The notes beneath the pieces were generated by a model. That model was not told where the DNA came from and made no database searches. It worked only from the letters and a program-made list of their open reading frames with translations. A stretch of 64,000 nt of DNA from a virus: positions 1 through 64,000 of IMG/VR virus record IMGVR_UViG_3300001336_000010. One strand, given 5' to 3'. The number at the start of each line of letters is the position of its first letter. The stretch's first letter is position 1. The position numbers and the translations under genes were made by a program. Below are positions 25,938 to 44,669 of this stretch, piece by piece.

Positions 25938-25964
25938 ATGATCCTCTCGGATGGTTTGTGAATA

Positions 25965-26669
25965 TCAGGAGCGTTCGCGTATCTGTCTCGTGCGGCGATC
26001 CTCTCTGGTTTCCCATGGCGCATCGAGTTCTTCTCGACGAGCGTATCGTCGGATCAGGGTCGCCCCGAGGTTTTCCAAAGGAAGCATCGTCAGATCCGAA
26101 AGGTCGAACTTTCTGATCTGTGTCTGGATCCTTTGAATGGGGGGGCGGGTGATAACCTCCGGTCGACCGACCAGGACTACCGGTCTGGCCACATACATCG
26201 AGAGCTTTCCGATTGTATCGACAAGTGATTGAGCCTTCTGGTCAACCTGGGTCAGAATTAGCGGCTGGATATTGGTGGCATTCAATTCCTTTTCCAACTG
26301 CGTCATTTTCATTAACCAAGCGGGTCTGATTATTTGCTTAATGGGAGAACTCAGACGGGAAAGATTGGTCAGATAATAGGCCAGGGACTCCTCTGGGTCT
26401 TCAACATAGAAGACCCCTTGACCTGCCGGTTTGGGAATGGGCAGCATCGCTTGGACCAGTGGGTCTGGGAAGATCTGCATGAAGGTTTCCCAGTGGATCC
26501 GATCCGGCACCGGCGCCGCGGCGGGCACCAGGTGGTTGCACATCCCTCCTTTGACCTCGAAGGGACAAGTGCCTTTCAAACCAACAAAATTGTTTCCCTT
26601 TCTCCCTTGGACCAGCCAGGCCACGGCGCCATCCCAGTGGATTCCGTAGCTCTCGACGAGCTGGGTCAT
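25965..26669 (-). CDS. Hypothetical protein
   Basis: 234-aa ORF with RBS GAGGAGG. Confidence 0.6.
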   Translation of the reverse strand: MTQLVESYGIHWDGAVAWLVQGRKGNNFVGLKGTCPFEVKGGMCNHLVPAAAPVPDRIHWETFMQIFPDPLVQAMLPIPKPAGQGVFYVEDPEESLAYYLTNLSRLSSPIKQIIRPAWLMKMTQLEKELNATNIQPLILTQVDQKAQSLVDTIGKLSMYVARPVVLVGRPEVITRPPIQRIQTQIRKFDLSDLTMLPLENLGATLIRRYARREELDAPWETREDRRTRQIRERS

Positions 26670-26816
26670 GCTGCCTCCTCTCGAGCTACAAAGGCCGCGG
26701 CGAGTCGCCCAGCCTTTCCCTTGTCATTGAAGGCCATTGATTTCAGAGACACCAGGTAGTGGTGGTGGCCTAGATGGTAGGCCCTGACAAAAGTCCAGTA
26801 TCGTTTCAGTTGCGTG

Positions 26817-27203
26817 TCAACCATCGTTGTCCTCCAGTATATTCCCGATCTTTGTCTGAGTGTATGCGGCAATGTCCAGCAAATCCAGCAACTCGATTTC
26901 AGTTGTGCCTTGTTCGACCTTGCGCAACTTTATTACCGACCAGCCGAGATCGTTTGCAGCGTCGGTCACACCAACATCCATCTTGTGGCGAAAAGTGTAA
27001 AGATGTACTCCGATCCTGGTGTGGGTGCGGCTGAGAGATTTCTTGTTCCGCAGGGTGCGAGGGCGGCGTGGGATGTTGTTTTCCACCAGGATTTGAGAGA
27101 CCCTCTTCTCAGAAAGGCCATAGCACCGGGCCAGTTCGTGAAGCTGCTTTCCATCCTGGTAGTCTTGGCAGATGTAGTTGTCCCGCTCGATGTTGCTCGT
27201 CAT
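26817..27203 (-). CDS. Transcriptional regulator with two HTH motifs (Mor-like + XRE-like)
   Basis: LHELARCYGLSEKRVSQIL and AANDLGWSVIKLRKVEQG. Confidence 0.65.
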   Translation of the reverse strand: MTSNIERDNYICQDYQDGKQLHELARCYGLSEKRVSQILVENNIPRRPRTLRNKKSLSRTHTRIGVHLYTFRHKMDVGVTDAANDLGWSVIKLRKVEQGTTEIELLDLLDIAAYTQTKIGNILEDNDG

Positions 27204-27211
27204 GATCGTCC

Positions 27212-27786
27212 TTATAGAATTCGTTTTACACTTTGTTTTACACTTTTGGATTTTCCCCTTCTTCCTTGGGCTTCCTTCGACATCGATTTTCGATGTGCTT
27301 GGGCCCTATATTTCTGTGCCATTTCGAGCGTCCGGTGACCGGTGACGGCCTGGATCTCAGCGTCCGTTGCCCCGGTCTCGGCCAGCTCCTGGGCCGCGTT
27401 GTAGCGCCATCCGTGGATGACGTATTTCTCGGCCCCGATCCTGGTTCGGATCTCATGGATCCGGGTCTGGACCGCTCGTTTTGAAAGCGACCCACTGGTC
27501 TTTCTTCCTGGAAAGATCGGTCCCTGCTTCTTTCGAAAGGGAGCCAGGTATTCCTGAAGTCGCCGAGGGCAGTATACTTGGACGACCGATAGTAATCGTC
27601 GATCAGATTGTTGAACGTGGTTTTCACGTTCTTGTCACCGGTGCCCAACCGGGCTTTCCAGTAGGCAACAGCAAACTCGGGGGTCTCCGGGTTGTCCGGA
27701 AGGCGGACGCTCTGTTCCCCCCTCCGGAAATAGTAGTAGGTCTTCCCTCTGGATTTGACCGGCTGGATGTATTTCAGCTTCACCAT
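27212..27786 (-). pseudogene. int: Tyrosine integrase with internal deletion and frameshift
   Basis: N-terminal arm domain (GKTYYYFRR...RLPDNPETPEF..AY) joins out of frame at ~27570 to the catalytic C-terminus (YVIHGWRYNAAQELAE...AVTGHRTLEMAQKY). Confidence 0.85.
27223..27246. repeat. 12-bp tandem direct repeat GTTTTACACTTT (possible integrase arm sites)
   Basis: Two adjacent copies at the 3' end of the integrase remnant. Confidence 0.55.
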
Positions 27787-27950
27787 GCAAAGCTTTCTCC
27801 AGACGTGTCACCAGAGAGGCGCTTCTCCATCTCGCTGACGTTCCACCGCGGGTGCTTGCCCCCAATGAAGGTCGGCGGCGGGACCGCTCCCGCGTCCACC
27901 AGATCCTGGAACTCTTTGATTTTCATATCGAGAAGTTGGGCGGTCATCAT
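27780..27950 (-). CDS. xis: Excisionase-like HTH protein
   Basis: Translated by hand: MMTAQLLDMKIKEFQDLVDAGAVPPPTFIGGKHPRWNVSEMEKRL..., overlapping the int start. Confidence 0.7.
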   Translation of the reverse strand: MMTAQLLDMKIKEFQDLVDAGAVPPPTFIGGKHPRWNVSEMEKRLSGDTSGESFAW

Positions 27951-27974
27951 GAGATCCTCTCGGATGAGGTGGGG

Positions 27975-28190
27975 TCAGGCGACCTTTCTGAACGGATAGT
28001 CCTCCGGCCGGGACTTGATCAAGGCGTTGAAGCTGCGACCGACTGACGCAGCCGTGACGATCTCGTCGTGCAGTTCCGGGGGCACGTTGTCGTAGTGGTA
28101 TTCGGCCCCGCTGTTGAAGCGGACGCCCAGGACGTTGCCCTCATGGGCCACAGCGTCGATGTTGCTGCTGTCAACTTTCTGATAGATCAT
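27975..28190 (-). CDS. KTSC domain protein
   Basis: VDSSNIDAVAH...LGVRFNSGAEYHYDNVP...AASVGRSFN. Confidence 0.9.
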   Translation of the reverse strand: MIYQKVDSSNIDAVAHEGNVLGVRFNSGAEYHYDNVPPELHDEIVTAASVGRSFNALIKSRPEDYPFRKVA

Positions 28191-28453
28191 GGTTTTCTCC
28201 AGTATCCAAGACATTCAGGGTGGGTTTTGTGGCCTCCGAAGTAGTACCCCTCGGGGGCCTTCTCATTCAGGCGACGGACCATGTCGAGATACAGGTCTAC
28301 CCCCGCCTGGCTCTCCCACCACGGATCGAACGGCGGAAGGAGAGTTTGCTTGTAGCCGGCCAGGAGCCTGGACAGCTTGTGGACCACTGGTCCAAGATCG
28401 CCTTCAAACTCGGCGATCAGTTCGTCTGTGAAAACTTGGCGGTCATTTGTCAT
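28187..28453 (-). CDS. Hypothetical protein
   Basis: LNEKAPEGYYFG..GYW motif; coupled to the KTSC gene. Confidence 0.6.
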   Translation of the reverse strand: MTNDRQVFTDELIAEFEGDLGPVVHKLSRLLAGYKQTLLPPFDPWWESQAGVDLYLDMVRRLNEKAPEGYYFGGHKTHPECLGYWRKP

Positions 28454-28499
28454 TTCCAGAAATATACCACAGTCTGACTTGCTCACCACACTAATATAC

Positions 28500-28517
28500 T
28501 TGATTTCCGGAAATCAA
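28500..28517. promoter_or_regulatory. Perfect 18-bp palindrome TTGATTTCCGGAAATCAA (operator-like)
   Basis: Between divergent genes; the core recurs at seven other sites. Confidence 0.65.
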
Positions 28518-28556
28518 AACACTACCGTCCCGACACCATCTGAGCAAAGGACTACT

Positions 28557-28931
28557 ATGACCCTCACCTTTCAGAAGAGTATGTCGATGACTGACGAAAA
28601 CCTGACCTTGAAAGCCGCCGATCTTGTGGCTGCTTACGTCTCTCACAACACGATCAGTGCCTCCGAGCTCCCGGATCTACTGAACAAGGTCATCCAGACC
28701 TTGCACCAGAGGGGCGAAGCACAAGGCCCCCAGCCGGCGGTGCCGATCGAGGACTCTGTGCATGACGACTATCTGGTCTGTCTGGAAGACGGAGAGAAGG
28801 TGGTCCTCCTCTCCCGGTATTTGAAGTCACATTTTGAAATGACACCAGAGGACTATCGCACCAAGTGGGGGCTCCCAGAGGATTACCCGTGGATGAACGC
28901 ATTCATTTCCGCGACAGAATTGAATTCATAG
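28557..28931 (+). CDS. mucR: Ros/MucR family regulator, C-terminally truncated
   Basis: AADLVAAYVSHNTI...PAVPIEDSVHDDYLVCLEDG...MTPEDYRTKWGLPEDYP; similarity stops abruptly after YP. Confidence 0.85.
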   Translation: MTLTFQKSMSMTDENLTLKAADLVAAYVSHNTISASELPDLLNKVIQTLHQRGEAQGPQPAVPIEDSVHDDYLVCLEDGEKVVLLSRYLKSHFEMTPEDYRTKWGLPEDYPWMNAFISATELNS

Positions 28932-29065
28932 AGCTTGACCTGGCCGATGCGCGAAAGCGCATCGACCGAGGTTTCCCCGCCGTTGTAGGCGTCGACAGCG
29001 TCGACACCGAACACGACGGCGATTTCAAGCGGCGAATTTTTCCATTTCCAATTTCTTGGTTGCAT
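28883..29065 (-). pseudogene. Truncated hypothetical gene fused tail-to-tail with mucR
   Basis: Ends at MNAFIHG*, overlapping the point where MucR similarity ends. Confidence 0.4.
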
Positions 29066-29792
29066 AGACCATTTCCTTGTCAGGGTCTTTTTTCAAAGAT
29101 CCCTTCGCCCGCAGACCCACCACGCAGGGTGAGGGGTCCAAGAAACGAAGGTCATGATCATCACCGTCGATCACTGGAAATCCGAACAGGCTGCCACCGA
29201 TCTCGTCTGTGATCGCAGCGACGTTCATGCCCGCCCGGAGGACTTCCCTGGCGTAATGCTCGTTATTCTCGTGGAGGGAAAAGGTGAGGTGGTAATTACT
29301 TGGCCGGTCACGAAACATCCTCTTGTGGTGCTTCGTGTAGTCGTAGAACTGCGTGTCGGGGAAGTCACGGAAGATTTCCGGAAATTGACGCTCCCACTGC
29401 CAGTCCGAGAACACGTTCAGCCGGATGGCCGCGTCCTGGTTCCGGCTGATTTCCTTCCGAAGCTGGGCCATGAATTCGTCCCGGGCCCGGAAGAACCAGA
29501 TGGTGCGAAAGATCCGCCCCATCCAGATCGGGTTCGATCCGTCCCTGCGGACGAAATGCTCGGCACCGCGGCCGGAAGTGAAGATGCAGTGCTTCGTGCA
29601 TTCGGGGGAACGGGAGGCGCAAACCTCCCATCCCGATATGTCGGCCGGGGCCAGTGACAGGCCCAGACCTTTCCAGTTTTTCTTGGATGATTTGCGGAGC
29701 TTGACGTTCTCGTTGCTCAGCAACTTTTGGGGGCGCCAGCCCGCAACAAAGCGCGCTTCGGCTTCACGCCGAGCGTTGTCGTAGATATCCAT
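29025..29792 (-). CDS. Gp88-like phage protein (Cys cluster)
   Basis: LSLAPA...VCASRSPECTKHC...GRG, IRLNVFSD, QFYDYTK, NYHLTFS, DGDDHDLRFLD. Confidence 0.75.
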   Translation of the reverse strand: MDIYDNARREAEARFVAGWRPQKLLSNENVKLRKSSKKNWKGLGLSLAPADISGWEVCASRSPECTKHCIFTSGRGAEHFVRRDGSNPIWMGRIFRTIWFFRARDEFMAQLRKEISRNQDAAIRLNVFSDWQWERQFPEIFRDFPDTQFYDYTKHHKRMFRDRPSNYHLTFSLHENNEHYAREVLRAGMNVAAITDEIGGSLFGFPVIDGDDHDLRFLDPSPCVVGLRAKGSLKKDPDKEMVYATKKLEMEKFAA

Positions 29793-29820
29793 AAGATCCT
29801 CGCGGATGAGTGGTTGGGGT

Positions 29821-30126
29821 TTAGTGGAGCAGCTCGTCGATACGGTCGAGATAGATGGCCATCGCCATTGTGAGATCCTTCAGGTCGGCCTCGCGGGCCA
29901 TCTCCCGGATCTGGATGTCCTTGCGTGGGGTGAAGTTGGGCTTCACCTCCACTTCGGGTTCGGCCGGTGCCCCGACCAGATCGGTCAGGACGTCCAGCGC
30001 TGGTTGGACCAGGGGTTGAACCTCCTCGTAGCTGGCCTTGTTGGATTGGGCCGACTTGCTGATCAGCTCCAGGGTTTCGACGATTTTGGCGACCCGCTTC
30101 CGGTTCGTGTCGTTGTCAAAGCTCAT
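29821..30126 (-). CDS. Hypothetical protein
   Basis: Coupled ORF. Confidence 0.55.
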   Translation of the reverse strand: MSFDNDTNRKRVAKIVETLELISKSAQSNKASYEEVQPLVQPALDVLTDLVGAPAEPEVEVKPNFTPRKDIQIREMAREADLKDLTMAMAIYLDRIDELLH

Positions 30127-30484
30127 CGTCGGACACCCAGATCCAGGCCTGGACATACGCCCCCGGATCTTCGCCCTTGGAGACGATGGCCGTGCTATCG
30201 ATCTCCAGTTCTCCGTCCTTCTGGCGATCCATCGCGGCCTTCACATAGGGATCATCCGAGTTGTCGGGGGGAAAGACGTCATGCTCCACGACCTGGATGC
30301 TATCCATGAAGGATAGGCGGTCGCAGAGATGGTCAAAGCCCTCCCGCCAGTCTTCGGGAGCGGGATCGAACTCGAAATACGAGGAAACCCACTCGTGGGC
30401 CAGTTTGTCGGCCTCGGCCGCAGTGTTCACCACGACCGTGTCGACGCCAGAGTCGTCGTTGTATGTGATGGTCCAGATTTTCAT
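30116..30484 (-). CDS. Hypothetical protein
   Basis: DGELEID...GAYVQAWIWV. Confidence 0.6.
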   Translation of the reverse strand: MKIWTITYNDDSGVDTVVVNTAAEADKLAHEWVSSYFEFDPAPEDWREGFDHLCDRLSFMDSIQVVEHDVFPPDNSDDPYVKAAMDRQKDGELEIDSTAIVSKGEDPGAYVQAWIWVSDDEL

Positions 30485-30723
30485 GCCATGATACTCCCGG
30501 CTGCGCGGGCTGCATCAGCGTAGACTGACAGAGGATGCTCAGCAGTGAACCAGCGGTCGCACAGCCCGAACAGGATGTCGGGGTCTTCGGGGTCCATTTC
30601 AGTGATGAGCCAGGTGGCTGCGCCCCAAGGACAGAAGATCTTCAGGACTGGTTTGTAGTCCTCGCCGGGGGTGGCACCATTCTTGAGCAGCTGGCGCTCG
30701 ATTTCCTTGGTGATCAGTTTCAT
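30481..30723 (-). pseudogene. DUF2958-like protein with apparent internal deletion
   Basis: PVLKIFCPWGAATWLITEMD...LFGLCD jumps straight to RWFTAEHPLSVYA; the usual LG.G.PELGYV segment is missing. Confidence 0.65.
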
Positions 30724-30782
30724 GCTATCCTCCTTCGGATACGGGTTGAATTGGTAGCAAACGTCAGCGAACCGGTTGGGCA

Positions 30783-31034
30783 TCAGGAGTATTCGAGCTC
30801 CTCGATGAAGTGTTCGAGACGGTTGATCGTTTCTTCCCCAAGCCAGGAGACCGCCTCGTCCCTGCGTAGCTTGAGACCGTTCAGGGTCAGGTGATCGAAC
30901 TGAGCCGTCACCTGGATCCCTGCGGGCGCGAAGGGCTCCGCGGGGAAGCGTTCGACATCCAGTTCGAAACTGGCTGGAACCCCCTCGAGGTAGCCGTGTG
31001 GGGTGTCGATTTCGACTTCTGCTTCATACTGCAT
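30783..31034 (-). CDS. Hypothetical protein
   Basis: Coupled ORF. Confidence 0.5.
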   Translation of the reverse strand: MQYEAEVEIDTPHGYLEGVPASFELDVERFPAEPFAPAGIQVTAQFDHLTLNGLKLRRDEAVSWLGEETINRLEHFIEELEYS

Positions 31035-31359
31035 AGCTGAATAGCTCCCATGTCAGATTGTGGCCGGCCGCAGTCTTGAGCCGCAGTAGGCGGGTCAGAA
31101 ACTCGTCCGACTTGAAGTTGACGCTGATCTCGACGCCGGTGACGTCGCAGGGTTCGACCCCCACCATGGTGTGGCCGGAACTCGCCTGCCCGAAATCTCC
31201 GAACTCCCCGGTCACACGGATCGGTTTGCCCGCCAGGGCTTTGATCGGGATCAGGGTTTCCAACCCCTCCTGGTTCAGGATCGAAACCGAGTGCTGGTTG
31301 GCCCCAGCCGCAGTGACGCCGTAGAAAGTCCCCAAGGGGACGTCGATGTTGCGTTTCAT
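31024..31359 (-). CDS. Hypothetical protein
   Basis: Coupled ORF. Confidence 0.5.
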   Translation of the reverse strand: MKRNIDVPLGTFYGVTAAGANQHSVSILNQEGLETLIPIKALAGKPIRVTGEFGDFGQASSGHTMVGVEPCDVTGVEISVNFKSDEFLTRLLRLKTAAGHNLTWELFSYAV

Positions 31360-31943
31360 GTCAGATGTCCCTTGTTGATGGAGGTCAGGTATTCCCTAAC
31401 CATGTCGTGCGGGACGCCCTCCATCATTGGCCTGGAGATCACATCCTCCCAACAGGTTGGGGTATGCTGATCCAGGAGCATTTCAACGATCTCCTCGACC
31501 TCTTCTGGCGACCAGGGGTCATCGAGATCCGGCATCGGAGGGATCTCGCTGATAGGCGGGGGCTTATGCTCCCCCGTCACCTCACGGATTTCAAAATGCA
31601 GCGGGTTCACACAAAGCGGAGTGCCGCAGTGGTTGGCCATTTTGAATTCATAGGACGGTTTGTAGAGCAATAAGAAGAGAACGCGATGAACAGGGGTCTG
31701 TTTTTTCTGCCAGTTGATGACCCCGTATTGCCTTTCGTTGAAGACTTGGGTCACTCGGAGCCCTTGCTTTCGGCAGTTGATTGACTTGACCCTGCCATTC
31801 GAGGTTCTGGCCATTTTGGCCCCTGTCCAGGGGAGGCAGTCCATCGTCAGATCCTCATGGGGCACCTCCCCCAGGAGGATCTTCTCCAGGAGGGGGTAGT
31901 TGGTCTTCTCGGCCAGTCGTTTGAACAAGGTTTCACGGCGCAT
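31356..31943 (-). CDS. HNH-like (homing endonuclease-derived) protein
   Basis: CLPWTGA...YG...VHRV...HCGTPLCVNPLHF. Confidence 0.6.
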   Translation of the reverse strand: MRRETLFKRLAEKTNYPLLEKILLGEVPHEDLTMDCLPWTGAKMARTSNGRVKSINCRKQGLRVTQVFNERQYGVINWQKKQTPVHRVLFLLLYKPSYEFKMANHCGTPLCVNPLHFEIREVTGEHKPPPISEIPPMPDLDDPWSPEEVEEIVEMLLDQHTPTCWEDVISRPMMEGVPHDMVREYLTSINKGHLT

Positions 31944-32011
31944 CTTCAAGGTTCTCCCACAAGGCAATTTCGGCTGGGTCTGTCGGGCCGATCCAGTCAC
32001 TAGCATGAGGC

Positions 32012-33926: not shown

Positions 33927-34084
33927 CAGATGGTCTCCTTGTAGATTTCGTGGCAGAATTGGTTGTCGGTGTGGTCCGAGATCAGATCTTCGCCGTCATT
34001 GACCGAGATGGTCAGCCCGCGGCTCAGGATGGCGTCGATCAGCTTGTTGACGATCCGGGTTTCAGTGGGGGAGAGATATCTCAT
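33926..34084 (-). pseudogene. Short hypothetical gene, probably internally deleted
   Basis: ISVNDGE is joined directly to DLISDHTDN; 52 aa. Confidence 0.4.
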
Positions 34085-34479
34085 ATGATCTCGAGCCCCC
34101 GGAGGTAGCTGGTGTCGATCCACTTCTGCCAGCGGTCGGCGGTGTCAAAACCGTGGCGGGCTTCGTCCATCGTGAGCAGAAGGCCTTCTTCGTCCCGACA
34201 GTATCGGGCATACTGTCCCGTTTCTGCGTTGTAGAGCTCGAAGCCTGCGTTGTAAGCGTCCCCTGCTTCATAGGTCCAGATGAACGAGAGTTTGTTCGCC
34301 TTCAGAAGGTTGTAGACATCATGGTCGAGCTCCCCGTAATTGACCTCGTCGAAGGTCATGAAACCTTCAACCATGGTCTCTGGTCCCATGATCTCCTTGA
34401 TCTGGGAGAGCAGTGCCTCCCAGTGTGGCTTCTGGACCCGCCCGATTACGGACAGTGTGCAGTATGTGCGGTCACCCAT
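34081..34479 (-). CDS. Hypothetical protein
   Basis: MGDRTY...FDEVNYGEL; preceded by the SD hairpin. Confidence 0.65.
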   Translation of the reverse strand: MGDRTYCTLSVIGRVQKPHWEALLSQIKEIMGPETMVEGFMTFDEVNYGELDHDVYNLLKANKLSFIWTYEAGDAYNAGFELYNAETGQYARYCRDEEGLLLTMDEARHGFDTADRWQKWIDTSYLRGLEII

Positions 34480-34548
34480 GTGATCCTCCATTGGATTTGG
34501 TCCAGCCACCGAGGTGTGGCGGCTGGATGGTGTCATGCGGGTCGTCCG

Positions 34549-34887
34549 TCACAGCGGAACGGTGCCCACCTTGCGAAGCGGGGTTTTCAAGACCAGCGGG
34601 TCGTTGCATTTGGTGTCGACTTCGTTCACCCGATAGAGGGTCGTCCCGCCGACCAGGATGTCTCCGACCTCGACGGACCCCTGGTCCACCTCGATGTGGT
34701 ATCTCCGGCTCTCAGCCGCGCCGATCGCGATCGTGTAGGGAACCACTTCTTCGAGGGTCGCTGGGTCAAAGGCTTTGACGCCACCCCCGCCCTTGAGCTC
34801 GAGGACCAGCCAGTTGCGGCTGTCCTTGGCCAGCAATGTGCCGTACTGATCGTCCTTGGTTTTGTAGATGGGCTTCGCTTTTGTCAT
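34549..34887 (-). CDS. Hypothetical protein
   Basis: ATG at 34887 with RBS AAGGAG. Confidence 0.6.
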   Translation of the reverse strand: MTKAKPIYKTKDDQYGTLLAKDSRNWLVLELKGGGGVKAFDPATLEEVVPYTIAIGAAESRRYHIEVDQGSVEVGDILVGGTTLYRVNEVDTKCNDPLVLKTPLRKVGTVPL

Positions 34888-36767: not shown

Positions 36768-37319
36768 TCATGGCACGGGCGCCACCTGATCATTCGACGA
36801 CCTCCACGAAGCCACCGAATGACTGCGTTTGAACGTGTCCATCTGCGCCTCCTGGATAGATGCCAGGATTTCGGTAGGCACCTCTGGTTGGACCTTCTCG
36901 GTCGCCAGAGCATTCATCCACAGCAGTGGATAGTGGTTCTCTTCGAGATACTCGCTGCCACGACACTTCGGGCACCAACCACCAGTCTGGTCCATGTGGC
37001 CACAGTAGCCGCACTTGAAGAACTGCCGGCGATACTCGTTCAGCTCTTCGAGGTTGATGATGTAATGGCCCCAACGACAACGGCGGTTGATCGACATGTA
37101 GTCGGCCCAGTCATGGATCCGGACGCCACAGGTCGTGTTGACCTGGTCATCGAACAAGTGCTGGGGATCGACTTCGAACTCGTGCGTCCCGGGCTGGTGG
37201 AACCCACCGCCCCCATTGCCCCAGACATTGAAGTGCTCGTGAGCAGTGTCGAAAAGATGTCTCGGGTAGTCCGGGTCATCGACTGTAACTGGGCCGTAGC
37301 CCACGACTTGGATTTTCAT
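36768..37319 (-). CDS. Zinc-ribbon hypothetical protein, probably 3'-truncated by the MTase insert
   Basis: CGYCG...CPKC; the C-terminus runs into the MTase upstream region. Confidence 0.55.
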   Translation of the reverse strand: MKIQVVGYGPVTVDDPDYPRHLFDTAHEHFNVWGNGGGGFHQPGTHEFEVDPQHLFDDQVNTTCGVRIHDWADYMSINRRCRWGHYIINLEELNEYRRQFFKCGYCGHMDQTGGWCPKCRGSEYLEENHYPLLWMNALATEKVQPEVPTEILASIQEAQMDTFKRSHSVASWRSSNDQVAPVP

Positions 37320-37388
37320 GCTATCCTCCTACGGATACTTTGGACCTAGCAGTGGCTCGAAAGTCCTGCTAGGTCCGATTTCGGGAAA

Positions 37389-37792
37389 TCACCAAGAGGA
37401 ATCGTATTCGAAATCCCACTTGTTTACGGGGAAGAGCTCCAGCACCCGGTCGATCTCGCTGACCGTGTATTCCAGGTCTTTGAGATACCACTCGTCGTAT
37501 TCGGTGGCGCCAAAGAAGAACCCCGACTGGGTCGGGAGGGTCTCTGCGGCCGTCTCTGGGTTGTCCAGAACCCCTTGGCAGACGTTGCGCAGCTGGGTGA
37601 GCTGCTCCCGGCTGACCTGGTGGGGACGATGTCCACGAACCACTTGTGGATGGCGTTGGCCTTGCGCCAGTAGATCGCCTCGCACGCGATCGAGGTGATC
37701 TTGGCCCCGGCCGGGATCAGATCCGGCAGTTGGGGTTGGTGTTCGTCGAACCAGATGATCCGGTTCGCTTTGAGAAACATGTCAAGTCCCAT
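37389..37792 (-). pseudogene. Frameshifted hypothetical phage gene
   Basis: MGLDM...YWRKANAIHKWFVDIV in one frame continues as HQVSREQL...LPTQSGFFFG..YDEWY...YDSSW in another (shift near 37625). Confidence 0.75.
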
Positions 37793-37824
37793 TTGATCCT
37801 CCTACGGATTTCAGATTTCAGATT

Positions 37825-38049
37825 TCAGGCGTTCTGCAGTTTCTCCAGAACGATTTGCAGGTCTGTGATCCCGAGCTTGATGCGCTGGATCGCAGTATCC
37901 CGGTCGAAGCATTCCTCATCGTCGGAAAGCTCGGCCAGGACGAACGAGAGCAGGGCATCCCCGTGCTTGTCGTCGTAGCGATATTCGGGGATGTCCGAGA
38001 ACTCACCGAAGGCATAGACCTTCAGGGCTTCCTTCTGGAACTGGTTCAT
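37825..38049 (-). CDS. Hypothetical protein
   Basis: TGATG-coupled to the ligase gene. Confidence 0.55.
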   Translation of the reverse strand: MNQFQKEALKVYAFGEFSDIPEYRYDDKHGDALLSFVLAELSDDEECFDRDTAIQRIKLGITDLQIVLEKLQNA

Positions 38050-39104
38050 CAGTCGCTCCTCTTCTGGTCAAAGCCCCAATCGACGACGACCGGGAAGCGT
38101 GGGATCCCGTCCGGGGTCGGGGTGAAGTAGCGGACCGTGGCCCAGACGGGCAGGGGCCCTTCCAGCAGTGCCTTCATCGCCGGCTGCGTGCCACGCACCC
38201 CCGCGCCGAAGACCCGGCCGTCAGGGAGGCTGACGCGGAACCTCTTGGCGAAACCCGACCAGTTGCCGACCCCTTCTTCGACGGCCACGACCGAGAATTC
38301 ATCCGAAAGGAATTCCTTGCGCTTCAGGAGCGTCTTGGACCGCTTGCCAGGTTCATATGGCCTGTCGGCCCGGATCATCTGACCTTCGTAGCCCTCGTCC
38401 AGCCATTCGGCATACAAGGCGTCCAGTGTGTCGATGCCGGTGAAGTAGTGTGTGCTGACCTGGTGAACCCCCTGGATACCGCGGAGCAGCTGCAGTCGAT
38501 CTTCAAAATTTAAACTCGTGTCGACCAGGTCATAGACGTGGTATTGCACCAGTGCTTCGGCCTCGGCCGTGGCCTTGTCCTTGCGGACGAGGCTGGTGAT
38601 CTGGTTGAAATCGTCCTTCAGCTCGTGGTTGTAGAGCTCCCCATCCAGGATCAGGTGCGGCTTGTCCTCGAACAAGCGCGTCAGCCTGGAGCGGATGTGG
38701 GTCAGGGACCTGATCGGCTTTCCAGTGCGGGTCCACAGCCCATCGGCCCGGGCGATGCACCGGATGCCGTCCAGCTTGGGCTGGGCATACCCTTGGGTGA
38801 TCGACCCGTCCCAGGTCTTGGCCAGCATCGGCTTGGTGAAGTGGACCTTGTCGATATTCCCGATGTCGTAGAAATAACCCTGGTCCAGCTTTTTGCGATA
38901 CTCGGCATTGACCTCGAGCTTCGCTTGCTGCTCGGGGCTGGTCTCGTTGCTCCGTCCGACGTTCTTGGGCCAGGCCTTGGTCCAGCCAGAGGTGGTAAGT
39001 TTGCCGCCTCGCCGGCCCGAGATGCTACGGTAGCGGTCACCGTCGAGTTCCATGGACCACTGGCGGATTTCGCCGGTGGTGTCGCGCTTGTAGAGCGTCA
39101 TCAT
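38049..39104 (-). CDS. lig: ATP-dependent DNA ligase
   Basis: PMLA, QPKLDGIRC (KxDG), LDGELY, YDL, GYEGQMIR, LLKRK. Confidence 0.93.
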   Translation of the reverse strand: MMTLYKRDTTGEIRQWSMELDGDRYRSISGRRGGKLTTSGWTKAWPKNVGRSNETSPEQQAKLEVNAEYRKKLDQGYFYDIGNIDKVHFTKPMLAKTWDGSITQGYAQPKLDGIRCIARADGLWTRTGKPIRSLTHIRSRLTRLFEDKPHLILDGELYNHELKDDFNQITSLVRKDKATAEAEALVQYHVYDLVDTSLNFEDRLQLLRGIQGVHQVSTHYFTGIDTLDALYAEWLDEGYEGQMIRADRPYEPGKRSKTLLKRKEFLSDEFSVVAVEEGVGNWSGFAKRFRVSLPDGRVFGAGVRGTQPAMKALLEGPLPVWATVRYFTPTPDGIPRFPVVVDWGFDQKRSD

Positions 39105-39529
39105 TTCTGCAGTTTCCTTGCGATGGTCGAAGCCAGGCTGTAGCTGTCGTTCTGGTTCGGGATGGAGTTCAGGAGGTTCAGTGCGGACTGCAGCAGCTCG
39201 GTTTCAGTCGGCAGGAAGTCGAGCTTCTTGCACATCTCGCGCCAGTCCGGTTTCAGATCGGGGTCGGCGTGGATGAATGCCTTCGCGGTGTCCCAGATCA
39301 CGCAGTTTTCCATGAACCATGGGACGAATTCCCAGTCGAAGGCGTAGCCATCCATCCGGTCGCCCTTGTTGGCGATATGGTAGCCCTCGCTGATCTTGGG
39401 GCCGAGCGACACGCAACACAGACGGGCGTTTCCCGTGCCGCCAAGGAGTTCGAAATCATACCCGGACTCGAGCATATGCTCCCAGGCACACAGGGAAGCC
39501 TCAACGTGCGTGGCATAGTAGAACTTCAT
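39101..39529 (-). CDS. Hypothetical protein
   Basis: FDWEFVPWF motif; coupled. Confidence 0.6.
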   Translation of the reverse strand: MKFYYATHVEASLCAWEHMLESGYDFELLGGTGNARLCCVSLGPKISEGYHIANKGDRMDGYAFDWEFVPWFMENCVIWDTAKAFIHADPDLKPDWREMCKKLDFLPTETELLQSALNLLNSIPNQNDSYSLASTIARKLQK

Positions 39530-40137
39530 GCTGCTCTCCTTTCGAGAAAGTTGATGATCCGCCAGAAGCGGTCAGCTTGTGGGCCATCCCACATCGCGTT
39601 GTGGACCCCGCCATTGCAGAGGAAATTTTCCATCAGGCCGATTTCGTCGAGATCCGGATCTTCGATCCGAGCGGCGCACTCGACCAGTGTTCCGATCTGG
39701 TTGTGATCCCAGTCCTCGATCGGCCCCCAGTCCTCGGGGTCAGGCGAGTAGAAGGAAATGAACCCGGAGCGACTGGTGAACCGCTCCCGACACACGGCCC
39801 GGAAGGCTTCGGCCGGCACCATTTCCTGCAGGCGCTCGATATCCTCGGGGGTCAGGTCCACGAAGATCCGGTCGGTCTCGAAGTTGTATCCCCGCGGCGA
39901 GATCAGGCTTTCGAATTTCCCGTCCAGCCCCAGCCATTCGAGGAACGCCGCCGCATACGCTTTGGCGTATTCCAGCCGCGCCGACCCGAAGTCAGCGGCG
40001 TCGTAGGCCAGGTTGGTCAGGGTGTCAGAGGCCGGGACGTTCTCCAGTGACCGCTCGATCTCATTGTCGAATTCGGCGTCGTGGACCGAGCAGTAGAACC
40101 CTGAGAAAGGGATCGTGCTGTTAAATGACGCGGACAT
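39526..40137 (-). CDS. Hypothetical phage protein
   Basis: IPFSGFY, SPRGYNFETDRIF, FTSRSGFISFY. Confidence 0.7.
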   Translation of the reverse strand: MSASFNSTIPFSGFYCSVHDAEFDNEIERSLENVPASDTLTNLAYDAADFGSARLEYAKAYAAAFLEWLGLDGKFESLISPRGYNFETDRIFVDLTPEDIERLQEMVPAEAFRAVCRERFTSRSGFISFYSPDPEDWGPIEDWDHNQIGTLVECAARIEDPDLDEIGLMENFLCNGGVHNAMWDGPQADRFWRIINFLERRAA

Positions 40138-40402
40138 AGTAGGTCACTCCTCTCAGTTCGGCGTAGTGCCAGTCGAATTGGAAATACTCGCGGACCGCCG
40201 ACTCCCAGTCGATGTGCTTGAAGAGCCAGTTGTCGTCGGTCAGCTCACTGATCGACTTCAGGTAATCAGCCCGCTCGTCTTCAGCGATGAGTTCGGCCCC
40301 GTGGTCCCATTCGCAGTAGGGCCGCAGCTCGTCCCGGAAGGCGATCAGCTCTTCGAGATCGACGTCGTCGTCGATTTCAAGATCGATGTGCTTACTGTTC
40401 AT
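40121..40402 (-). CDS. Small acidic protein (ArdA-like C-terminal motif)
   Basis: Very acidic; HIDWESAVRE motif. Confidence 0.5.
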   Translation of the reverse strand: MNSKHIDLEIDDDVDLEELIAFRDELRPYCEWDHGAELIAEDERADYLKSISELTDDNWLFKHIDWESAVREYFQFDWHYAELRGVTYYVRVI

Positions 40403-40694
40403 CTTGCGACCTCGCCCAATCCCAGTATCCGAGGCGCGTGTCGCCGTTGGAGACTTCGTAAATCCAGTCGTCGACGGGTTGGTTGGGGTGGTCGTCCCAG
40501 ATCGACCCAGAATTGACGACCCGGTCGAAGTAGACCTCCAGTCGCCAGGTATCGATCAGGGACTCCGGGCGGAGGAAGCCGGCACCGAAGAGCTGGCGCT
40601 GGATCGCGATGCGGAGGTCGATTGCGTCCTCCTCAATATCAGGGGTCGCCTCCATCTCCATGTAGATGTGGGCTTCAAGTGTATGGATGGGCAT
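40392..40694 (-). CDS. Hypothetical protein
   Basis: DWIYEVSNGDTRLGYWDW; preceded by the SD hairpin. Confidence 0.6.
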   Translation of the reverse strand: MPIHTLEAHIYMEMEATPDIEEDAIDLRIAIQRQLFGAGFLRPESLIDTWRLEVYFDRVVNSGSIWDDHPNQPVDDWIYEVSNGDTRLGYWDWARSQDEQ

Positions 40695-41101
40695 ATGATC
40701 CTCCATCGGATGCAGTGGTTTAGTCCTCGAGAATTTCCCGGACTTTCTTCAGGGCGCGGCGCGTTCCAGTGTTGGGTATCGGCCCAGCAGGAAAGGTTTC
40801 GTGTCGTTCGACACGTGATCCTCCATCGGATGACTTGCTTTTGGTAGTAGCAAGCCGCTAGGCTTGCTGCTCTATCGGATATGTGTCGAAGAGATTGCAT
40901 GCTTGCAGCACGACCCGGAACTTTTTCGGCTTCGGTGGTAGGAAATGCCATTCGAACCGGGTTCGCGGTTCGGCCTGGAGGAAGTGCTGGATCCCCTCGG
41001 ACAGGCTGCGCCACCGATGCAGCAGACCGTGCCACAGTCGGCTTTGGGTTTGTGGTGGGTGGCCTTCAGATACTCGTCGAACGTCTCGAGGTCCGGTTGC
41101 A

Positions 41102-41578
41102 TCAGATCAGTCCTTTGCTTCTGAATGAGGTTTCGGTGCCCTTGCCGACGATGATGTGGTCATGGACCACGATCCCGAGCGTCTCGGCCGCGGCCACGAT
41201 CTGCTTGGTCATTTCGATGTCAGCAGGGCTGGGTTCGGGATTCCCCGACGGATGGTTGTGGATCAGGATCACCGCCGATGCGTTCAGCAAAAGTGCAGTA
41301 CACATGATCTCGCGAGGATAGACCGGGACGTGGTCAACGGTTCCGGTGCCGTGGTGGTGGTCCTTGATCAGCCGGTTGCTGCGGTCCAGATACAGGACGT
41401 GGAAATTCTCGAGGGACGCCTGATAGGTGACCTGGCAGTAATCCAGCAGCCGGTCCCAGGAGGTGATCACTGGCCGCGAGTTGAGTTCCCGGGCCAGCTC
41501 GGCCCGGACTTTTTCCATAAGCTCGGTCACCATGACGTTGCCCCATTTCGAGGCGGTCTCGACGAGTTTCCGGGTCAT
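41102..41578 (-). CDS. radC: RadC-like JAB domain protein
   Basis: ENFHVLYLD...GTVDHVPVYPREI...HNHPSGNPEPSPAD...HDHIIVG. Confidence 0.92.
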   Translation of the reverse strand: MTRKLVETASKWGNVMVTELMEKVRAELARELNSRPVITSWDRLLDYCQVTYQASLENFHVLYLDRSNRLIKDHHHGTGTVDHVPVYPREIMCTALLLNASAVILIHNHPSGNPEPSPADIEMTKQIVAAAETLGIVVHDHIIVGKGTETSFRSKGLI

Positions 41579-41871
41579 TTGAGCGTCTCCAGTCTGAGAT
41601 CTTCGAGGGCGTATTCGAGGGCGCGCATCTTGGTCAGCACATGCTGGGCTCGGTCCTGCAGCAGATCTTCGGCTGCGGTCTCGATCGCCTCGTTCACCAT
41701 CTCCTCGAAGACCCGGATCGGGATCTGGACGTTGTTGATCCAGACCTCGGCGGTCAGTGTCTCGCTGTTCCGCCACTCGGGGGTGTCCGCGATCTCGATC
41801 GCGGTCTGCCGGTCCTGCATGGCCAGGTGGGCCACCAGGATGCTGCTGATCTTGGATCGGGTCATTGTCAT
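41575..41871 (-). CDS. Hypothetical protein
   Basis: Coupled ORF. Confidence 0.55.
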   Translation of the reverse strand: MTMTRSKISSILVAHLAMQDRQTAIEIADTPEWRNSETLTAEVWINNVQIPIRVFEEMVNEAIETAAEDLLQDRAQHVLTKMRALEYALEDLRLETLK

Positions 41872-42746
41872 TCGAAGATCTCCTCGATGCAGTCGCTCAG
41901 GTCGAAGTCGGGATCGGGCTCCTCGCCGTTGGCCCATTGGGAGAAGATCTCGACCTCAGCCTTCAGGATGAGTTCAATTTTTGAACGGAGCTTGGGCGCG
42001 ATCCGCTTGACGCCGTATTCCTTGCGGACGTCGGAGCGGGAGACGTAGATGTAGCCGGTCTGGCCACTGTCCCCTGGGCAGTGGAAGCCCGTGGTGTTGA
42101 ACGCGACCCCGCCGTGCTCGTAGCGGTAGACCGGGAGCCAGATGCAGTCGCTCAGGTCGAAGTCGGGATCGGGCTCCTCGTCGCCGCAGTGGCGGATTGC
42201 CAGGGTGCCGAAGTTGCATGAGAATGTCATCCTTCCATTGGTGTGGGGGGCGAAGCTGCGGGCGTCTTCGAGGCCGTCGCAGTAATCGGAGCAGTGGAAC
42301 GGATCGGTCAGAACCACTTGGTTGTCCGAAGGGCGGCACATCCAGTTGTGCCGGTGGCCATCGAACCAGAATGGTTTCTGGTCTTCGCGCCGGCCGGTGA
42401 TGTCCCACATGACCTGCTCAAGCTCGGTCCCGAAATCGACCCCGTCGATATCGTGGTAATCCATCAGGTGCATGAACCCGGTGCGGGAGACGTGGTCGAT
42501 CCTGGTCAGCTCCTCCATCACGGCCAGGAATGTGTTCGATCTGAAATCGACATGGACCGCGTGGATGCGAGGCATCCAGGGGTAGGGGGAGGGGTGCGAG
42601 AGGCAGTATCCGGCCCAGTAGAGCCAGCAGTCCCGACTGGCGTTGACGCCGCGTTTGACCACGGTGCCGGGGGTGGTGCCTTTGTAGACGTGGGCATAGC
42701 TGCCGGATCCAGTGCGGTTTTCGGGCTCATAGGTGAAATCAAACAT
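41868..42746 (-). CDS. T7 gp0.7-like protein kinase domain fused to a fragment of another phage protein
   Basis: GSGSYAHVY, VVK, PRIH, MEEL, DGHRHNWM, LTDP; then LPVYRYEHGG...DSGQTGYIY. Confidence 0.7.
   Translation of the reverse strand: MFDFTYEPENRTGSGSYAHVYKGTTPGTVVKRGVNASRDCWLYWAGYCLSHPSPYPWMPRIHAVHVDFRSNTFLAVMEELTRIDHVSRTGFMHLMDYHDIDGVDFGTELEQVMWDITGRREDQKPFWFDGHRHNWMCRPSDNQVVLTDPFHCSDYCDGLEDARSFAPHTNGRMTFSCNFGTLAIRHCGDEEPDPDFDLSDCIWLPVYRYEHGGVAFNTTGFHCPGDSGQTGYIYVSRSDVRKEYGVKRIAPKLRSKIELILKAEVEIFSQWANGEEPDPDFDLSDCIEEIFE
41886..42180. repeat. 40-bp identical direct repeats (41886-41925, 42141-42180)
   Basis: GATGCAGTCGCTCAGGTCGAAGTCGGGATCGGGCTCCTCG occurs twice. Confidence 0.95.
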
Positions 42747-43218
42747 CGATGATCTCCAGATTTTGGCGACACCATGCAGGGAGGCGCACAAGTCGGCTGG
42801 TGGTCTTGGACCTGTAGGTGGCACGGTGGTGGTGGACGAAATCCGTCCCCCAACCCGGTGCGGGTTCGGGGATGCGGATGGTCTGGCCGGGTTTGGGCTT
42901 GGGTCGGTTGTTCCAGGTGCGGGACCGTTCGCGGAACTCGACGGCATGCTCGTTGTGCGGCGGCGGGGCCAGTTTGAGGATGGTCGGGGGGCACCGGCAG
43001 TATTGCGGGGCCGGCCCCATGGTCTCGTCCATGTCCTTGTACATGAACTCGCCGCGGTATCGCTGGGTCAGGATCACGATGATCGGGAGGTCAGTAGCCG
43101 CGGCGAACCAGACGCTGCCCACCTTTTGCAGGCGCAGCAGATCGTGGTTGACGAAGAGGGTCTCGATGAATGCCTTCTCATCGAAGCAGTAGGGAATGTT
43201 GAAACCAGTCCAGCCCAT
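42739..43218 (-). CDS. DUF6927-like protein
   Basis: MGW...YKDMDETMGP...CPPTILKL...FRER. Confidence 0.7.
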   Translation of the reverse strand: MGWTGFNIPYCFDEKAFIETLFVNHDLLRLQKVGSVWFAAATDLPIIVILTQRYRGEFMYKDMDETMGPAPQYCRCPPTILKLAPPPHNEHAVEFRERSRTWNNRPKPKPGQTIRIPEPAPGWGTDFVHHHRATYRSKTTSRLVRLPAWCRQNLEIIDV

Positions 43219-43219
43219 G

Positions 43220-43639
43220 TCAGTACTCCGCTCTGGTGTTGACGTCTTCGACGGCGTGGATGTCGTCGAGGTTGATCTCGCTGATCACCTCGCCCGTGGC
43301 GTCGATCGCGATCGCAGCTCCCGTGAGGTAGCGGAGCTTCTCGTTTCCGACTTCGATCCAGACGAACAGCCCGCCGGGGTCGTCGGCGAAGGCCAGGTGG
43401 ACGACGTCCAGCAGGCTCAGGTCTTCGTCTTCGGTGTAGGAGTGGCCGAGGATGCCGAGGAAGTCGGCATCCTCGGCTTCGGGCATAATGGTCGGGGTGC
43501 CATAGGGGTCGACACTGAGGATGCAGTTCAGATCGCCCTTGCTCGGGGTCTGGATCGGGAAGAGCATTTGCAGTGCGTCAAGCTTGACGGGATCGAACCG
43601 GACATAGTTCGACCGGGCAGTTGCGTCGTAGTTGGCCAT
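43220..43639 (-). CDS. Hypothetical protein
   Basis: MANY...RSNY...EVGNEKLRYLTG.A...I.LDDI. Confidence 0.7.
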   Translation of the reverse strand: MANYDATARSNYVRFDPVKLDALQMLFPIQTPSKGDLNCILSVDPYGTPTIMPEAEDADFLGILGHSYTEDEDLSLLDVVHLAFADDPGGLFVWIEVGNEKLRYLTGAAIAIDATGEVISEINLDDIHAVEDVNTRAEY

Positions 43640-43643
43640 GGGA

Positions 43644-43952
43644 TCAATCCTCCGCTTGCTGTGTGGGGGTAGTCGGGTGGCTCAGGTAGGGTGGCCTACG
43701 AATGAGCGAGATGGCTCTGTGCGAGCCTTTCCGGGCCTCCGACGGATAGGGTTCCTGCAGTCCACGGTTCCAGACGTTGACGTCGTCATTCATCCACGGT
43801 TCGAAATACCCGTCGGCCATGAGGTGGCCGATAGCGCAGGCGTGGCCTTCGGGGGTACGGTAGACGCAGTTGTTGTGGTCGCCCTTTGCGAGGGCGTTCT
43901 GGGTAATGACGCCAGTCACGGCGATGTCGAAGAACTTCTGGAATTTATGCAT
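43644..43952 (-). pseudogene. Truncated hypothetical gene reading into the repeat
   Basis: CVYRTPEGHACAIGHL, then runs out of frame into the 69-bp repeat. Confidence 0.5.
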
Positions 43953-44167
43953 CAGATTACTCCCATCATGATGGCTGCAGATTGGCAGGAATTGGTGCCA
44001 CAGGACTCGCACCATCCAGCGTCCTGATCGGGTTCGAACTCGGTCGAGTAGTCGCAGTCTTCGTTCATGCAGATTGCTGGCATGACTCCGTCGAAAACGT
44101 AGTCTTCGACCATTTCTTCGGGGGTGGCGTAGCCCCAGTCGCGGGCCAGGGTGTTCAGTTTGTCCAT
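43952..44167 (-). CDS. Small zinc-ribbon protein
   Basis: ICMNEDCDY...EPDQDAGWCESCG. Confidence 0.7.
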   Translation of the reverse strand: MDKLNTLARDWGYATPEEMVEDYVFDGVMPAICMNEDCDYSTEFEPDQDAGWCESCGTNSCQSAAIMMGVI

Positions 44168-44223
44168 GGGATCAATCCTCCGCTTGCTGTGTGGGGGTAG
44201 TCGGGTGGCTCAGGTAGGGTGGC

Positions 44224-44604
44224 CTACGAATGGGTGATGACGTTCTCAGAGAGGCGTTTCATGGTCGCCTCGAGATCGGGCAGTATCGGGGAGCCGATTT
44301 CACGGCCGGTTTCGATGAGATCAGCCAGGTTGCGCTGGAAGTCGCGTTCACGGGCGGCGAGGGGCGTTTCCTGGTCGAGAACCCACTGACGCAAGGTTTC
44401 GAGGGTCTCAGGGATCCTCTCGCAATCGAGGGCGTATAGGACGGGGCTGCGGATCCGCTTGTTGTTGCGGTCCATCTCGATACTGATGGCGAAGGGCTTG
44501 CCACAGAAGTTGAGGTAGGGGGAGGTCTCGACGCGCTTGAAGCCCAGCTCTACGGCGAGGGTTTCGAGGGCCTGGACACGGTTGAGTAGCGTTTGAAGTT
44601 CCAT
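44224..44604 (-). CDS. Hypothetical protein, first gene of the early block
   Basis: ATG at 44604 preceded by the SD hairpin. Confidence 0.65.
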   Translation of the reverse strand: MELQTLLNRVQALETLAVELGFKRVETSPYLNFCGKPFAISIEMDRNNKRIRSPVLYALDCERIPETLETLRQWVLDQETPLAARERDFQRNLADLIETGREIGSPILPDLEATMKRLSENVITHS

Positions 44605-44669
44605 GATATCCTCCATCGGATGGTTAGATTTGCAGTGCAAGTTTTGCAGTGCGCGATTGGCGGGGGTGG

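Follow-up and report, generated by a model that had tools for sequence, protein, structure and literature searches.

The closest described counterpart of the element reported here is the start-associated sequence (SAS) of Cluster K mycobacteriophages. As described by Pope et al. 2011 (PMC3203893), SAS is found in 11-19 copies per genome, 3-7 bp before start codons that are mostly ATG, in the non-structural half of the genome and in one orientation bar single reversed copies, and is nearly absent from the host. It is described there as preceding genes separated from the upstream gene by more than 50 bp, and as consisting of a Shine-Dalgarno (SD) core that is conserved beyond its pairing with 16S rRNA and is flanked by outer bases with a GGG...CCC symmetry (PMC3203893). 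Its role was still given as unverified in 2025 (PMC12699233). A SAS-like motif, GGGAAAGGACCCC, has been reported in ten copies for Microbacterium phages of Cluster EF (PMC7302621), and a 26-bp repeat for Citrobacter phage Mordin (PMC4611695). The element analysed here, ATCC-loop-GGAT with a loop of 4 or 6 nucleotides (nt), is set exactly 3 nt before start codons in a 64,000-nt stretch of phage DNA (the window), which corresponds to the first 64 kb of one 75,285-bp virus record (IMG/VR record IMGVR_UViG_3300001336_000010, labelled G000 among the genomes compared). The virion genes of this phage occupy the plus strand, from ~50.3 kb round the end of the record to ~9.9 kb, and its early and replication genes the minus strand, from ~50.1 kb down to 10.0 kb.

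The element is real and phage-specific, tied to a single strand and position, conserved among relatives, and limited to early genes that do not overlap the gene upstream. As judged from sequence comparisons, we hold it to be, with a probability of about 0.6, a lineage-specific, start-associated mRNA module with a cis-acting RNA role in initiation. An RNA hairpin appears to be the best reading of the element because its arms covary in a distant relative, a provirus of Inquilinus limosus, where five complementary stems are found.

Scanning both strands of the window for ATCC-N4/6-GGAT-N3-RTG returned 14 matches, against a mean of 0.27 (maximum 2) in 100 dinucleotide shuffles. The minus strand carries 11 of these, ten of which have a purine-rich loop (GAGA twice, GCGA, GAAGGA, AATGGA, GTAGGA twice and GATGGA three times) and lie 3 nt ahead of a start codon (nine ATG and one GTG). 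A reading of the window made earlier from its letters alone (the sequence-only reading) had listed these ten SD-type sites, and all were present where it had placed them; it had overlooked the eleventh minus-strand copy, at 47153, whose loop is the pyrimidine-rich TCTATC. Minus-strand sites are named here by the coordinate of the A of ATCC, their upper end. Two of the three plus-strand matches are palindromic echoes of minus-strand sites, and the third (27438) lies inside a minus-strand gene. When all 4-nt stems with a loop of 4-6 nt, a 3-nt spacer and ATG were compared, ATCC was the sole enriched stem, with 11 occurrences in G000 and 12 in the related genome G001, the runner-up reaching 3 and 2, respectively; stems with one mismatch numbered one in G000 and two in G001. 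The same reading had called stem and spacer invariant, which holds for the stem and for the length of the spacer (3 nt at all 22 SD-type sites of G000 and G001, 21 with ATG and one with GTG, all on the early strand) but not for the sequence of the spacer, which varies. The sites span 25.9-44.6 kb, which is the half of the early arm closer to the promoter; the replication genes farther along, polymerase included, are devoid of the element, and the rest of the record (64-75 kb) has no copy. As the sequence-only reading had noticed, virion genes lack it: no copy with an SD-type loop precedes any of the 28 plus-strand genes. The reversed arrangement GGAT-N0-3-ATCC occurred at background level only, and a search for 8-mers enriched upstream of ATGs gave nothing informative.

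Related phages carry the element as well. In G001 (an IMG/VR record with terminal repeats, 78.8 kb), which is collinear with G000 at ~70% nucleotide identity in conserved genes and whose helicase is 73% identical, 12 copies were found on the early strand, none on the other strand and none in a backwards control. G003 has 5 copies plus two with a broken outer pair, G012 has 4 copies on a single strand and G004, a partial record, has 2. Another 3 copies are on a second contig of the G002 assembly, and several Psychromarinibacter scaffolds carry copies as well. Most of the tagged G000 genes are without homologue in G001 or G003. The site ahead of the SNF2-type helicase gene is the most readily followed: the element is kept at the helicase start in 7 of the 8 genomes whose identity is 57% or more, with the loop GAGA in G000, GGAA in G001, GATA in L106, GAGA in L107, GGAT in L117, GAAGGA in L116 and GTGA in L027, the latter with a 3' arm mutated to GGAA; the helicase start of L026 (60% identical) has no element. 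Helicase relatives at 48% identity retain its form, as ATCC-GTTGA-GGAT-ctt-ATG in L114 and TCCC-TGAGA-GGGA-caa-ATG in L108. No element was found at the helicase gene of records resembling Achromobacter phage JWF (JWF-like records), where TTCC-N5-GGAA-N5-ATG, with 3 copies in 81.5 kb, is suggestive at best. A Hyphomicrobiales locus has 3 copies with a 4-nt spacer.

Outside these phages the pattern is rare. Genomes of 4.2-5.6 Mb used as stand-ins for the host, the true host being unproven, gave 20-33 pattern matches each, mostly with loops unlike an SD, so that the motif is not as frequent there as in the phage. An exact-pattern scan of IMG/VR for the hexaloop form with ATG returned G001 and two single matches only. 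For the tetraloop form it returned 97 stretches, nearly all with a single match, G003 and G012 being the multi-match records; we take the single matches to be at chance level, the expectation being a rough estimate based on database size rather than a computed value.

Evidence that the two arms pair came from a contig of Inquilinus limosus MP06 (G008 contig C1, L132-L137; 119,858 bp), for which IMG/VR has an 82.6-kb provirus entry showing the same motif matches. TCCC-N5-GGGA-N3-ATG occurs 15 times in the 6.9-Mb Inquilinus genome, and 14 of these occurrences are on the provirus contig. Sites were selected by an inner CC/GG, a YGNGA loop, a 3-nt spacer and an ATG, with outer pairing ignored in the selection. 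Both outer pairs were Watson-Crick at 24 of the 25 sites, as opposed to a mean of 8.5 when the 3' letters were shuffled, and none of 20,000 shuffles reached 24. The stems fall into five types, namely TCCC/GGGA (13 sites), TTCC/GGAA (5), ATCC/GGAT (4), CTCC/GGAG (1) and ACCC/GGGT (1). In the 25-site alignment, 99% of the cells were paired compared to 83% in shuffles, both variable pairs changed on both sides only (17 such cells vs 4.9; 0 of 500 shuffles), and the covariation score was 0.462, compared to 0.145 in shuffles and at most 0.171 with slid partners. Copies that share a type probably go back to copying, so that the cells do not represent independent events; the five stem types still call for at least four double changes. 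At eight of the Inquilinus sites, the hairpin loop contains the TGA that ends the upstream gene, with a gap of 7 or 9 nt (contig region 91.7-113 kb, for example).

Two stem variants were also found in G001, both before plausible starts of genes. AACC-AGAAGA-GGTT-att-ATG stands ahead of a homologue of a G000 gene, and TTCC-GCTGGA-GGAA-aac-ATG ahead of a 227-amino acid (aa) open reading frame (ORF; start near 77650, minus strand). The product of this ORF (MRILHIEDD...) resembles, by eye, a response-regulator receiver domain. Between lineages the 5' arm differs yet stays complementary to the 3' arm.

The minus-strand copies of the element in the window are as follows:

25935..25952, minus strand: ATCC-GAGA-GGAT-cat-ATG, ahead of the SNF2-type helicase gene (24501-25937); upstream stop 27 nt before the ATG; orthologous site kept in relatives.
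27948..27965, minus strand: ATCC-GAGA-GGAT-ctc-ATG, ahead of a 56-aa ORF (27780-27950), directly after the KTSC gene; the order KTSC, hairpin, small gene also occurs in G003.
29790..29807, minus strand: ATCC-GCGA-GGAT-ctt-ATG, ahead of a GP88-family gene (29025-29792); the G001 orthologue has ATCC-GAGA-GGAT-cat-ATG.
30721..30740, minus strand: ATCC-GAAGGA-GGAT-agc-ATG, ahead of a DUF2958 gene (30481-30723); gap of 59 nt.
34477..34496, minus strand: ATCC-AATGGA-GGAT-cac-ATG, ahead of a 132-aa ORF (34081-34479); predicted stem pair probability of 0.01 in local context.
37317..37336, minus strand: ATCC-GTAGGA-GGAT-agc-ATG, ahead of a 183-aa ORF (36768-37319, phrog_26133).
37790..37809, minus strand: ATCC-GTAGGA-GGAT-caa-ATG, ahead of a 122-aa ORF (37424-37792).
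40692..40711, minus strand: ATCC-GATGGA-GGAT-cat-ATG, ahead of a 100-aa ORF (40392-40694).
40812..40831, minus strand: ATCC-GATGGA-GGAT-cac-GTG, ahead of a 21-codon frame only; 120 nt upstream of the 40711 site.
44602..44621, minus strand: ATCC-GATGGA-GGAT-atc-ATG, ahead of a 126-aa ORF (44224-44604), the first gene after ~1.2 kb without a called gene.
47134..47153, minus strand: variant ATCC-TCTATC-GGAT-gcc-ATG, with the same stem and spacing and a pyrimidine loop that holds no SD.

Two gene assignments of the sequence-only reading did not survive. The 56-aa ORF that it had labelled xis had no Pfam or PHROG match, and the GTG site, given as a gene start, opens a frame (starting at 40814) of just 21 codons. 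This frame (40749-40814, minus strand) shows a weak likeness to ORF N-termini in two JWF-like records (E ~1, small database) and may be the remnant of a truncated gene.

As judged from the called genes, a non-coding gap precedes every site, and none is located at a junction with an upstream gene. In G000, 24-177 nt separate the ATG from the nearest upstream stop (counting ORFs of 50 aa or longer), with the exception of 44621, where the crude nearest-ORF measure is -55 owing to an uncalled 55-aa ORF, and where ~1.2 kb without a called gene comes before the site. Gaps are 20-31 nt, little above the length of the element, at 12 of the 22 sites of G000 and G001, and the crude measure is negative at 2 of the 22. 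In a crude gene model, the element is carried by 8 of the 24 minus-strand genes with a gap of at least 20 nt, by none of the 36 that abut or overlap their neighbour and by none of the plus-strand genes; C(24,8)/C(60,8), worked out by hand from these crude counts, is ~3e-4. The gene caller missed two of the ten sites, those of the 37792 gene and of the 21-codon frame. Upstream of the element, A and C dominate the adjoining 15 nt, where G makes up 9-15% compared to 28-32% genome-wide, and the first 15 nt of the tagged ORFs are likewise G-poor. No conserved sequence was detected upstream of the ten sites.

Some leaders have features of their own. Three tandem GAAATCT units (37810-37830, minus strand) adjoin the 37809 hairpin on its upstream side and overlap the stop codon of the preceding gene. 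An 11-bp stem, GGACCTAGCAG/CTGCTAGGTCC, is found just upstream of the 37336 hairpin (37337-37424, minus strand), and an 8-bp stem, AGCAAGCC/GGCTTGCT, just upstream of the 40831 hairpin (40832-40872, minus strand), neither of them followed by a T-run. Because no sequence is common to both, these stem-loops do not qualify as a repeat of the kind seen in the extended SAS (ESAS). Two genes without the hairpin share an identical 24-nt leader ending in GCGGAGGATTGATCCC-ATG (43639-43665 and 44167-44193, minus strand), and the G001 orthologue of the 44167 gene has the canonical ATCC-GTTGGA-GGAT-atc-ATG in its place. Since the 44167 gene and this orthologue differ in leader, one gene family makes use of two different ribosome-site modules.

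The early arm encodes a primase-polymerase, RadC, a DNA ligase, a C5 methylase, an HD protein, GP88, DUF2958, KTSC, a helix-turn-helix protein, the SNF2 helicase and a family-A DNA polymerase, and one plus-strand gene encodes Ros/MucR. Megablast revealed no close DNA-level relative in the public phage collection; the DNA polymerase is at most 44% identical at the amino acid level to those of Achromobacter phage JWF, Xylophilus phage Lumi and Caulobacter phage Seuss. Helicase homologues with 70-78% identity come from sources named Rhodobacteraceae/Paracoccaceae, Epibacterium and Psychromarinibacter. Because these homologues and related contigs derive from Rhodobacteraceae-type assemblies, the host is probably a marine alphaproteobacterium of the roseobacter group. 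The phage DNA is present in one sequencing run, of an aquatic metagenome, and a metagenome scan with the helicase as query returned distant matches only. No tRNAs were found in the phage DNA scanned, and no Rfam family matched the 64-kb window at gathering score.

As to how the element may act, the 3' arm and loop of the 4-bp hairpin AUCC/GGAU would together carry the SD sequence, exactly 3 nt before the start codon. The 16S 3' tail of a Rhodobacteraceae genome reads GGAUCACCUCCUUUCU / GGATCACCTCCTTTCT. A role of the 5' arm in extending the SD pairing with this tail was ruled out by geometry, ATCC lying 5' of the SD. The suggestion that the conserved ATCC is more than part of an SD has thus held up, there being no contiguous pairing with GGAUCACCUCCUUUCU and the stem undergoing compensatory changes in relatives. 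We propose that the two arms fold into the hairpin in the mRNA, with the final two G residues of GGAGG (or GAGG) tied up in the stem, so that the hairpin would have to open before the 30S subunit pairs with GGAGG and would thereby set or gate initiation. Selection may keep the leader G-poor, such that no competing structure forms and the hairpin stands alone, and the module would serve those early genes that load ribosomes on their own rather than overlapping an upstream stop. Ribosomes ending the upstream gene 20-30 nt away, temperature or a dedicated reader are possible openers. The hairpin could be put to three non-exclusive uses. It may be gated by the upstream ribosome, the upstream stop being situated ~1-11 nt before the 5' arm at 12 of the 22 sites, and in the loop at the eight Inquilinus sites mentioned above; it may provide a self-contained, context-independent ribosome site, which would suit a hypervariable cassette region, where nucleotide homology to relatives breaks off at the element in both accessory genes shared with them; or it may be the site for a reader.

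Folding predictions lend the hairpin a stability that depends strongly on temperature: in isolation it is predicted at -2.4 to -3.2 kcal/mol at 37 °C, -5.1 to -5.7 at 20 °C and -6.3 to -7.1 at 10 °C. The stability at low temperature would matter for a marine host. In local context, the stem pair probability exceeds 0.3 at 17 of the 22 sites of G000 and G001.

Several observations weigh against a cis-acting hairpin. The stem is not predicted in local context at the remaining 5 of the 22 sites, and at about -3 kcal/mol (37 °C) the hairpin is weak and would fall below the stability at which translation of the MS2 coat gene is reportedly lowered. G000, and nearly so G001, are uninformative on pairing because the stem never varies there. 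In G003, ATCC is kept opposite a 3' arm GGAA at two sites, that of the helicase included, with no compensating change, which favours sequence over structure. The eleven near-identical 19-mers of the Inquilinus provirus are explained by copying or by a sequence-specific reader no less well than by a role in cis only. The phage contig C142 of the G002 assembly, of which the helicase is 76% identical, has a single copy, and the element would thus appear dispensable for most early genes. Finally, any NNCC/GGNN hairpin before any ATG, counted over 46 related loci, was not above offset controls (126 vs 99.3); this broad count took every ATG and is too noisy in the absence of gene starts.

The hairpin might instead be the address of a dedicated trans-acting reader (a phage RNA-binding protein, a nuclease or an antisense RNA) by which the tagged early genes are switched as a group. 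We consider this possible, if rather unlikely. What is uniform within a genome is the sequence and not just the pairing, with ATCC stems at 22 of 22 sites in G000 and G001 and the repeated 19-mers in Inquilinus; one-mismatch stems are scarce (3 sites in two genomes), and ATCC persists in G003 where pairing is broken. The five stems tolerated in the Inquilinus provirus speak against a strict reading of the stem sequence. A Pfam scan of the 49 early proteins identified no RNA-binding family. The sequence-only reading had itself seen no CsrA- or RegB-type protein, in agreement with which the CsrA family (PF02599) was absent from the phage and from 4 of 4 host stand-ins, which may not represent the true host (controls were positive in E. 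coli, B. subtilis and T. maritima), and RegB and RegA (PF10715, PF01818) had no match in 5 of 5 phage records in a search where no positive control matched either. Its proposal that a phage protein or nuclease switches these genes together is one form of this reading and as conjectural. The KTSC protein, put forward there as a candidate, is a possible reader by position only. Its gene (27978-28190) adjoins a site and encodes one of the few small early proteins that are conserved in G001, G003, G012, G004, the JWF-like records and the Inquilinus contig; the JWF-like records lack the ATCC element, leaving KTSC with no specific support. Pfam presumably carries a remark that KTSC might bind RNA. 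KTSC was not found in the single-site contig C142 of G002, a correlation with copy number that rests on one genome. The domain has been described as DNA-binding (PMC9503650). The other candidate partner is the copy at 47134-47153, the mirror image of the GATGGA-type element, which could pair 14/14 (one G-U) with the three GATGGA sites. It is located in a structured non-coding stretch (47000-47235, minus strand) after the primase-polymerase stop, with a predicted folding energy of -94.9 kcal/mol (z = -5.1 vs shuffles), in which a 13-bp hairpin, the mirror-image ATCC-TCTATC-GGAT and a 9-bp hairpin, GGGGUGUCC/GGACACCCC, follow one another. Instead of the 42-codon ORF beginning 3 nt past the mini-hairpin, the stretch may encode a structured RNA. 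On the early strands of G001, G003 and the Inquilinus contig, no mirror copy was found. A second hairpin with a TCTATC loop, ACCC-TCTATC-GGGT, occurs at 34641 inside a gene. That the hairpin is a label read by such a partner (KTSC or an antisense RNA from 47134-47153, for example), that ten early genes are switched together and that the SAS-like tags of unrelated phages are convergent forms of private translational control is a tentative proposal that we would put at about one chance in four.

Readings at the level of DNA appear less probable still. The element might be the 5' end of mobile early-gene cassettes, kept uniform by copying or recombination, its ATCC arm being carried along rather than selected for translation; we regard this as improbable. 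It does front unrelated genes, most of them without homologue in G001 or G003; copy number is uneven among close relatives (10, 12, 5 and 1); and the Inquilinus sites form discrete types of stem, loop and spacer, as copying would have it. In 2 of 2 shared accessory genes, nucleotide homology to relatives stops at the 5' edge of the element, 5 nt upstream of it at 29807 (vs G001) and exactly at the 5' A (0 nt) at 37336 (vs G003). The sequence-only reading had offered a recombination joint as its alternative, with which these two cases are compatible; they are weak evidence because any phage is expected to show mosaic joints where genes meet. Only eight invariant bases and the SD are common to all sites, too few for homology-driven exchange, the helicase site has been inherited vertically together with both flanking genes (G002 C142), and the compensatory stem changes, the fixed 3-nt spacer and the G-poor flanks point to selection on RNA. 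The arms likewise form a DNA palindrome that might bind a dimeric phage regulator or serve as a hairpin-type promoter, and in the Inquilinus form, TCCCTGAGAGGGA, a 5-bp stem closing a 3-nt loop could arise, reminiscent of the hairpin promoters of phage N4. We give this reading very little credence. A role as DNA operator is unlikely because the loop, and hence the half-site spacing, varies (4, 5 or 6 nt) but neither the strand nor the distance to the start codon does; the SD is inside the element, and some Inquilinus copies, with the upstream stop in their loop, lie within operons. A scan of 25.8-45.7 kb for promoters and terminators yielded fewer sites than shuffles, sigma-70-type sites among them. 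A better operator candidate is another palindrome, ATTTC-NN-GAAAT, which is found no more than 400 nt upstream of 2 of the 10 sites only. It has nine exact copies (24504, 28452, 28503, 29374, 37378, 44773, 44873, 45063 and 50215) and 14 with at most one mismatch, and is possibly an operator, separate from the hairpin.

If a reader does exist, the element would disclose a phage-private layer of translational control. If there is none, it would be a naturally occurring, self-contained module for ribosome entry, relevant to phage mosaicism and to the design of context-independent expression. The isolate genome of Inquilinus limosus MP06, with ~25 sites of five stem types, possibly offers a tractable system.

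Compared with other regulatory devices at ribosome sites, the cis-acting hairpin proposed here has partial counterparts. In SD-sequestering hairpins, such as those of translational coupling and RNA thermometers, an upstream arm resembling an anti-SD base-pairs with a portion of the SD, and the hairpin can be opened by the upstream ribosome or by heat. The roughly twofold gain in predicted stability from 37 °C to 10-20 °C is in keeping with such devices, which are in contrast single, gene-specific and usually longer, whereas here one 4-bp module precedes 10-25 unrelated genes per phage. With CsrA/RsmA sites and the targets of T4 RegB and RegA, the ribosome sites of many early messages contain GGA or GGAG. 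A loop GGA of the kind CsrA recognizes is present at the 7 hexaloop sites but not at the 3 tetraloop sites, which also lack GGAG, and neither system explains the conserved 5' arm.

No published description of the element was found for roseophages or for the JWF/Seuss group, supplementary material being outside the search. Actinophages have been known since 2011 to carry over-conserved ribosome-site repeats, which are without explanation; the same logic is met here in alphaproteobacterial phages, in a simpler form, and the compensatory changes in a relative argue that selection sees an RNA hairpin. With the Cluster EF motif and the Mordin repeat, the element shares an over-conserved ribosome site before a subset of genes and, in the case of the EF motif, complementary outer bases around the SD; the sequences and the phages are unrelated, and neither covariation nor fixed spacing is among the features described for those repeats in the text of the reports available to us. 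The likeness to SAS, as far as the parts of the published accounts considered here describe it, is more extensive: both are multi-copy, rare in the host and conserved beyond 16S pairing, both stand before ATG at non-structural genes, in one orientation with the odd reversed copy, and both have complementary outer bases. As for the separation from the upstream gene, given as >50 bp for SAS, no site here adjoins a called upstream gene, the gaps are often just 20-31 nt (12 of 22 sites), and in Inquilinus the stop can lie in the loop. The sequences are unrelated (GGGATAGGAGCCC vs ATCC-loop-GGAT), and the SD overlaps the 3' arm here while in SAS it is wholly between the arms. No ESAS-like 17-bp inverted repeat is evident upstream of the sites in the window. 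The spacer of exactly 3 nt, the two or three loop lengths, the compensatory stem changes in relatives and the alphaproteobacterial hosts further set the present element apart. On these sequence grounds, it is an analogue of SAS rather than a homologue, and not a member of that group by descent.

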